Positions 2,835 through 2,894 of a stretch of DNA of 6,827 nt are shown here, piece by piece. Within the stretch, counting starts at the first letter, position 1; each line of letters begins with the position of its first letter. The position numbers and the translations under genes were made by a program. The notes under the pieces are model-generated. The model was not told where the DNA came from. It worked only from the letters and a program-made list of their open reading frames with translations, and searched no databases. The stretch lies in IMG/VR virus record IMGVR_UViG_2671180984_000008; one strand, written 5' to 3'. This stretch comes from a virus (lineage: Duplodnaviria > Heunggongvirae > Uroviricota > Caudoviricetes).

Positions 2835-2894
2835 AGAAATAGAAATAGAAATAGAAATAGAAATAGAAATAGAAATAGAAATAGAAATAGAAAT
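2835..2894. repeat. Perfect hexanucleotide microsatellite (AGAAAT)x10, with a degenerate flanking unit at 2829-2834
   Basis: Read directly: ten uninterrupted AGAAAT units across 60 nt. It lies in the divergent intergenic region between the minus-strand backbone genes and the plus-strand cargo ORF. Confidence 0.97.

Follow-up and report, generated by a model that had tools for sequence, protein, structure and literature searches.

The (AGAAAT)10 tract at positions 2835–2894 of the window (the whole stretch of 6,827 nucleotides analysed here, from the Caudoviricetes record IMGVR_UViG_2671180984_000008 in IMG/VR) is the repeat array of VNTR-9, also called O157-9, Vhec4 or TR1. This variable-number tandem-repeat (VNTR) locus is established in multiple-locus VNTR analysis (MLVA) of Escherichia coli strains that produce Shiga toxin (STEC), and the tract is thus already known and not new, an identity that an earlier note made from the bare sequence had missed. 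The window holds the same tract in an uninterrupted context, free of the insertion sequence IS30, next to a plus-strand gene for a 574-residue protein, referred to here as the cargo gene. The tract is very probably a non-coding, AT-rich hexanucleotide microsatellite, the ordinary hypermutable simple sequence repeat (SSR) of the VNTR-9 locus, lying near the left edge of a low-GC island that occurs in the nin region of lambdoid prophages, among them phages that carry Shiga toxin 1 (Stx1). As it stands this is of little import, since the locus has been a standard epidemiological marker of O157:H7 for more than 20 years (since 2003) and its instability has already been measured.

Identity of the tract as VNTR-9

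The ten units follow one another without interruption, as the earlier note had read them; a regular-expression count gives the same result, and Tandem Repeats Finder (TRF) reports the array as AAATAG with period 6 and 10.8 copies over 2831–2895 (score 123). It is the sole perfect SSR of at least 15 bp that a regular-expression search finds within the window. The chance expectation for any perfect hexamer repeated ten times in 6.8 kb is ∼1e-28 at the composition of the window and ∼6e-26 at 30% GC.

Two published forward primers match the window exactly to the left of the array (Table 1). The first is the TR1 primer of Noller (ACTGCATGATAAGCCTCAGG), which is listed with the unit AAATAG in PMC2246123; the second is the forward primer used for VNTR-9 (O157-9) in the PulseNet and Japanese schemes, which overlaps the HNH start codon and the sequence of which is given in PMC8461963, PMC3321953 and table S5 of PMC10062581. 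The equivalence of Vhec4, TR1, O157-9 and VNTR-9, and their location at Z3935/Z3936 in EDL933, are stated in PMC3768571 and PMC3321953; the namings for O157:H7 are those of Keys 2005, Hyytia-Trees 2006 and Izumiya 2010 (O157-9), Lindstedt 2003 (Vhec4) and Noller 2003 (TR1). Window positions 2600–2909 are 99.4% identical to EDL933, and the gene order HNH–ninG–phosphatase–Q is the same in both. The EDL933 locus has ten AGAAAT units, and the end of an IS30 (TGTAGATTCAATTGG...) begins 15 bp past the tract. The TR1 and VNTR-9 reverse primers both lie inside this IS30 (positions 5310–5560 of the EDL933 locus L001), and both are absent from the window, where their best matches have 6 and 15 mismatches.

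The window therefore resembles O157:H7 VNTR-9 in its 6-bp unit, in the left flank with both forward-primer sites and the HNH start, in its position in the nin region and in its hypervariability, and differs from it in having an uninterrupted island and the cargo gene where O157:H7 has the IS30 with both reverse primers. The tract belongs to VNTR-9 in its unit, flank and primer sites as well as in where it lies in the genome and how it behaves, and the only defining feature that is missing is the IS30-borne reverse primer site. As this site is missing, the standard assays would score a null allele. IS30-free copies, which are null alleles in these assays, are found in O111, O145 and other E. 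coli genomes that we examined and in phages with Stx1, and some O157:H7 strains have one as a second copy; primers placed in the cargo-side flank would let the IS30-free locus be typed. The remaining primers of the Japanese 17-locus and PulseNet schemes (EHC-1/2/5/6, EH111-8/11/14, EH26-7, EH157-12, O157-3 and O157-10) have no site in the window, and we identified no published assay for the IS30-free context among the primers of those schemes. O157:H7 strain 2571 has two copies, one of the IS30 type with 10 units and one in an intact island with 13 units.

The other 6-bp MLVA loci of O157 (O157-3/TR5, O157-17/TR3, O157-25/TR4, O157-19/TR7 and O157-10/TR2) are likewise hexanucleotide SSRs that change by slippage and serve as epidemiological markers, with rates of roughly 1e-5 to 1e-3 per generation (PMC3777172). 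They differ in unit and site, and several lie inside open reading frames (ORFs), whereas the tract in the window is intergenic and prophage-borne; it may therefore be absent from a genome or be present in more than one copy.

Length variation of the array

Among 5,426 complete E. coli genomes, 245 have the locus in the form seen in the window and 281 have the IS30 type. Counting units directly on fetched loci gave alleles of 3, 5, 7, 8, 9, 10, 11, 13, 17, 18 (with one variant unit) and 23 units; in these loci the change in length is limited to the tract and the flanks are identical. Spans of BLAST matches add alleles of 15 and 16 units, and the overall range in complete E. coli genomes is 3–23 units between near-identical flanks. 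The O111 strains alone cover 7 to 11 units and the IS30-type loci of O157:H7 cover 8–22. The O157:H7 tract, with IS30 in place of the cargo side, is as variable as the tract beside an intact cargo gene. Two Stx1 phages have 17 (SH2026Stx1) and 7 (AU6Stx1) units, and 34 IMG/VR contigs have 4–16.

Near-identical bovine isolates differ by single units: 21 units in each of Z1830, Z1832 and Z1833 stand against 22 in Z1831, and 17 in Z1815 against 16 in Z1816. All five EDL933-derived assemblies have 10 units. The published record agrees with this picture. Typing of the locus gave 15 alleles with 6–23 repeats, 31.7% null alleles and a diversity index (0.90) above that of the other seven of eight loci (PMC3321953); the location of the reverse primers in IS30 may explain part of this high null-allele rate, as prophages or strains without that IS30 cannot amplify. 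On serial passage Vhec4 changed at 4.3–4.6e-5 per generation per strain, by single-unit insertions and in one case by a point mutation (PMC3777172, which cites Noller et al. for an earlier sighting of Vhec4 mutation). The proposal in the earlier note that the array is a substrate for slipped-strand changes in copy number is thus borne out by the range of 3–23 units, the one-unit differences between sister isolates and the laboratory rate of ∼4.5e-5 per generation (PMC3777172), and the invariance across related prophages that the note had named as evidence to the contrary is not seen.

Units with point mutations (AGAAAC, GGAAAT or AGAAGT) occur in 10 of the 34 IMG/VR contigs, and some of these variant units have been duplicated in turn. 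The orthologue in Escherichia albertii keeps the flanks and has only about three imperfect units (AAATAA-AAATAG-AAATAG-AAATA), from which it follows that it was in E. coli prophages that the array expanded to a long tract. The earlier note had also suggested that the tract may be a relic of a low-GC donor genome. Part of this stands, as the island is indeed low in GC (28–40%, against ∼50% for the backbone) and the E. albertii copy of the island does contain a proto-repeat. A passive relic inherited near its present length is nevertheless very improbable: orthologous islands with near-identical flanks have anything from 3 to 23 units, and units have been gained in the laboratory, and thus the length was generated in E. 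coli and was not inherited.

In the history of the hypermutable SSR that we favour, a proto-repeat of two or three units arrived with the island, and the array expanded in place from it; this expansion is shown by the data, as are the identity of the locus, its polymorphism and the steps of one unit. On the best-supported account, replication slippage gains and loses whole 6-bp units, mostly one at a time, and occasional point mutations break up the array, with the resulting variant units open to duplication as well. We infer that these changes in length are selectively near-neutral and that the tract is without a dedicated regulatory function.

Coding and regulatory alternatives

Owing to the composition of the tract, no stop codon interrupts it in five of the six frames. 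Two of the resulting ORFs are on the minus strand (Table 1): an (FL)n ORF, which the earlier note had already called spurious and which indeed looks so, and an (IS)n ORF. The Prokaryotic Genome Annotation Pipeline (PGAP) calls the latter in all five of the examined alleles of at least 11 units (11, 13, 17, 18 and 23) and in none of the five examined alleles of 10 units or fewer, and each called allele has a different WP accession (the calls are at 9188–9442 of locus L002 and at 288 to about 500 of loci L013, L017, L018 and L019, matching the (IS)n interval of the window). In O157:H7 the IS30 removes the starts of both ORFs.

One reading of these ORFs is a genuine small hydrophobic protein whose (IS)n or (FL)n repeats vary in length in frame. 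Both minus-strand frames are open, the 6-bp unit preserves the frame, the longer alleles have the (IS)n ORF annotated by PGAP and an older EDL933 annotation puts the VNTR inside Z3935/Z3936. Such a protein is hardly credible, however, given that composition alone opens five frames, that the PGAP calls depend on an allele length of 11 units or more and yield a new accession each time, that the O157:H7 locus has lost both starts, and that hardly any repeat peptide is left in the three-unit alleles of E. coli and E. albertii. The ORFs across the tract look like annotation artefacts. Annotation pipelines generate allele-specific ‘hypothetical proteins’ here, and the (IS)n series looks like an artefact that swells pan-genome counts.

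A regulatory role was raised in the earlier note, which placed the tract in a divergent control region where changes in copy number would alter the helical phase between upstream regulator sites and the promoters. The distances given there hold for the ORFs on which they were based. The tract starts 199 bp from the annotated HNH start and 185 bp from the left edge of the island, and its end is 236 bp from an ATG at 3130; the likely true start of the cargo gene is the TTG at 3211, which is 316 bp away and is backed by PGAP, by the start of the PHROG profile and by an AGGAGG box. For the proposed phase effect we found no support. A consensus scan of 2500–3300 found no σ70-like site above shuffled controls, and in a position weight matrix (PWM) scan of both strands no site attains the mean best score of shuffled sequence. 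The best plus-strand candidates of the PWM scan, which score below the shuffle null, lie at 3043–3110, at least 150 bp to the right of the tract. Part of this stretch, ∼3065–3120, has an identical sequence in E. albertii and would thus be the likeliest site of a cargo promoter. On the other strand, HNH overlaps ninF in island-less phages and is translationally coupled to it within the nin operon, so that neither an HNH promoter of its own nor a divergent promoter pair is needed. Variability is also the same where the cargo side is missing.

Other searches for a regulatory element were likewise negative. An Rfam scan of 2500–5500 found no family over the tract, RNA from either strand of the tract is unstructured, and we found no report in the literature of a function or of length-dependent expression for the locus. 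We know of no convincing match between the hexamer and the Lrp or IHF consensus or the high-affinity H-NS motif. A long mutable tract is not kept across orthologues, as E. albertii and one E. coli strain have about three units and 10 of the 34 IMG/VR alleles are interrupted.

SSR contingency loci upstream of promoters include the TAAA tract of Neisseria meningitidis nadA and the 7-bp repeats of Haemophilus influenzae hmw. In these systems expression follows the number of units, and the repeats are located in the leader or else separate the promoter from mapped regulator sites. The tract in the window resembles them as an AT-rich, short-unit, hypermutable repeat upstream of a horizontally acquired and possibly virulence-related gene. 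It differs in being equally variable where the downstream gene is missing, and hypermutability and an intergenic site are all that it shares with them.

By analogy, the tract could be a contingency regulator, phase-variable or acting as a rheostat, in which the number of units shifts the spacing or phasing to the cargo promoter, or affects read-through from pR into HNH–ninG–Q, such that subpopulations differ in the expression of the cargo gene or of the late genes (Stx1). The hypermutability of the tract, its site between divergently oriented genes, its place along the pR–Q path of Stx1 phages and the precedent of nadA, where a repeat upstream of the promoter works in this way, all speak for such a regulator. 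We still consider it unlikely. The tract is outside every predicted core promoter, its variability is undiminished in O157:H7 where IS30 replaces the cargo side, E. albertii keeps the flanks with only about three units, many alleles have decaying, interrupted units, the allele lengths are broad and continuous (3–23) with no on and off classes, and the literature that we found holds no functional report. A rheostat in the narrower sense, in which tract length tunes the cargo gene, or in which a G-free (AUUUCU)n segment in the pR transcript modulates read-through to HNH–ninG–Q and hence late-gene and Stx1 expression, is quite improbable. If true, a marker in routine use for typing would turn out to be a genuine SSR contingency switch in E. 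coli, which is believed to make little use of such switches; the tract would be of biological interest only if length-dependent expression were demonstrated.

Several points do weigh against a neutral, non-coding microsatellite. The tables of alleles built from BLAST rows are biased towards the length of the query itself, and promoters were sought only with crude consensus and PWM scans. The lack of function is something that we infer rather than a measurement. The tract also lies on what appears to be the sole route of transcription from pR to HNH, ninG and Q, and an effect on this transcription at the level of RNA or of DNA topology is conceivable, as is an effect of the tract on the cargo promoter through distance.

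The island and the cargo gene

The minus strand of the window is a lambdoid early-right/nin module, interrupted at the position of ninF by the low-GC island that holds the tract and the cargo gene (Table 1). By blastn, window positions 832–2649 (99.7% identity) and 5448–6588 (95%) are backbone collinear with a prophage in which HNH abuts ninF, and the 2.8 kb between them are therefore an inserted or replaced island; a composition profile sets it apart from the phage backbone by its GC content. The island module is present in prophages without stx, and two sequenced Stx1-converting phages have the order ...ninB–dam–[island]–HNH–ninG–ninH–Q–stx1AB. Islands were detected in E. coli and E. albertii. 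A scan with the right flank against one genome per species gave no match, and these species representatives are without the island.

Table 1. Features of the window, with position 1 as its first nucleotide
Feature	Position	Strand	Remarks
HNH_3/AP2 endonuclease gene	2070–2636	−	Followed by ninG, a Ser/Thr phosphatase gene and Q
VNTR-9 (O157-9) forward primer, PulseNet/Japanese schemes	2621–2647	+	Exact, 0 mismatches; overlaps HNH start codon
Low-GC island (∼28–40%) in ninF position	2650–5447		blastn against island-less prophage L021; composition profile
(FL)n ORF, apparently spurious	2696–2953	−	Start removed by IS30 junction in O157:H7
TR1 forward primer (Noller)	2739–2758	+	Exact, 0 mismatches
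(IS)n ORF, apparently spurious	2787–2963	−	PGAP ‘hypothetical protein’ in longer alleles
Microsatellite (AGAAAT)10, array of VNTR-9/O157-9/Vhec4/TR1	2835–2894		Sequence, TRF, regular expression; published unit AAATAG
Position homologous to O157:H7 IS30 junction	2909–2910		15 bp right of tract; no IS30 in window
Cargo gene, 574 residues	3211–4935	+	TTG start after AGGAGG; uncharacterised family phrog_9230
NinE	5439–5621	−	nin module
Dam	5618–6145	−	nin module
NinB	6142–6594	−	nin module

The cargo protein has no match in Pfam, NCBIfam, PADLOC or the sequences of the PDB, and an AlphaFold2 model from a 19-sequence alignment is unusable (mean pLDDT of 34). Its N-terminus is rich in Ser and Thr, and the protein further shows hydrophobic helices and repeats of the motif LTLNDFLDN. 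The only homologues found are those of E. coli, E. albertii, Salmonella enterica and Providencia alcalifaciens (loci L003–L010). The S. enterica homologue, with 47–50% identity, is the sole gene of an islet flanked by cdd and a DUF218 gene, and an E. albertii paralogue with 70% identity is in a chromosomal islet, two genes away from an NleF-like gene. Speculatively, the cargo protein may be an uncharacterised type III effector.

Relative to the common 590-residue form (a cluster of 1642 member sequences), the cargo gene of the window lacks 48 bp at 4774, which encode 16 residues (CKHKIDEIYEKRFSET). The deletion is in frame, and the direct repeat of 9 bp (TCAGAAACA) at its bounds is suggestive of slippage or illegitimate recombination. 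Split or truncated forms of the gene are found in other strains (phrog_14900, phrog_13344 and a coding sequence of 310 residues in O111:NM strain 2010C-3053).

An imperfect 20-bp repeat in two copies (80% matches), which TRF reports at 2578–2618 within the 5′ end of HNH, is probably due to chance. At 4981–5011, 46 bp past the stop codon of the cargo gene, there is a perfect 9-bp inverted repeat (GTATGCGAC ... GTCGCATAC) with a 13-nt loop, which from its sequence is probably a hairpin at the end of the transcript. A sub-threshold Rfam match to the plant microRNA family MIR1444 at 4965–5032 is spurious, and this hairpin is its likely cause. The ∼500 bp between the cargo gene and ninE (4936–5447) are low in GC and have no annotated gene; they contain a minus-strand ORF of 47 residues (5107–5250), and a gene of 64 residues is called at the matching place in E. 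albertii (locus L003).
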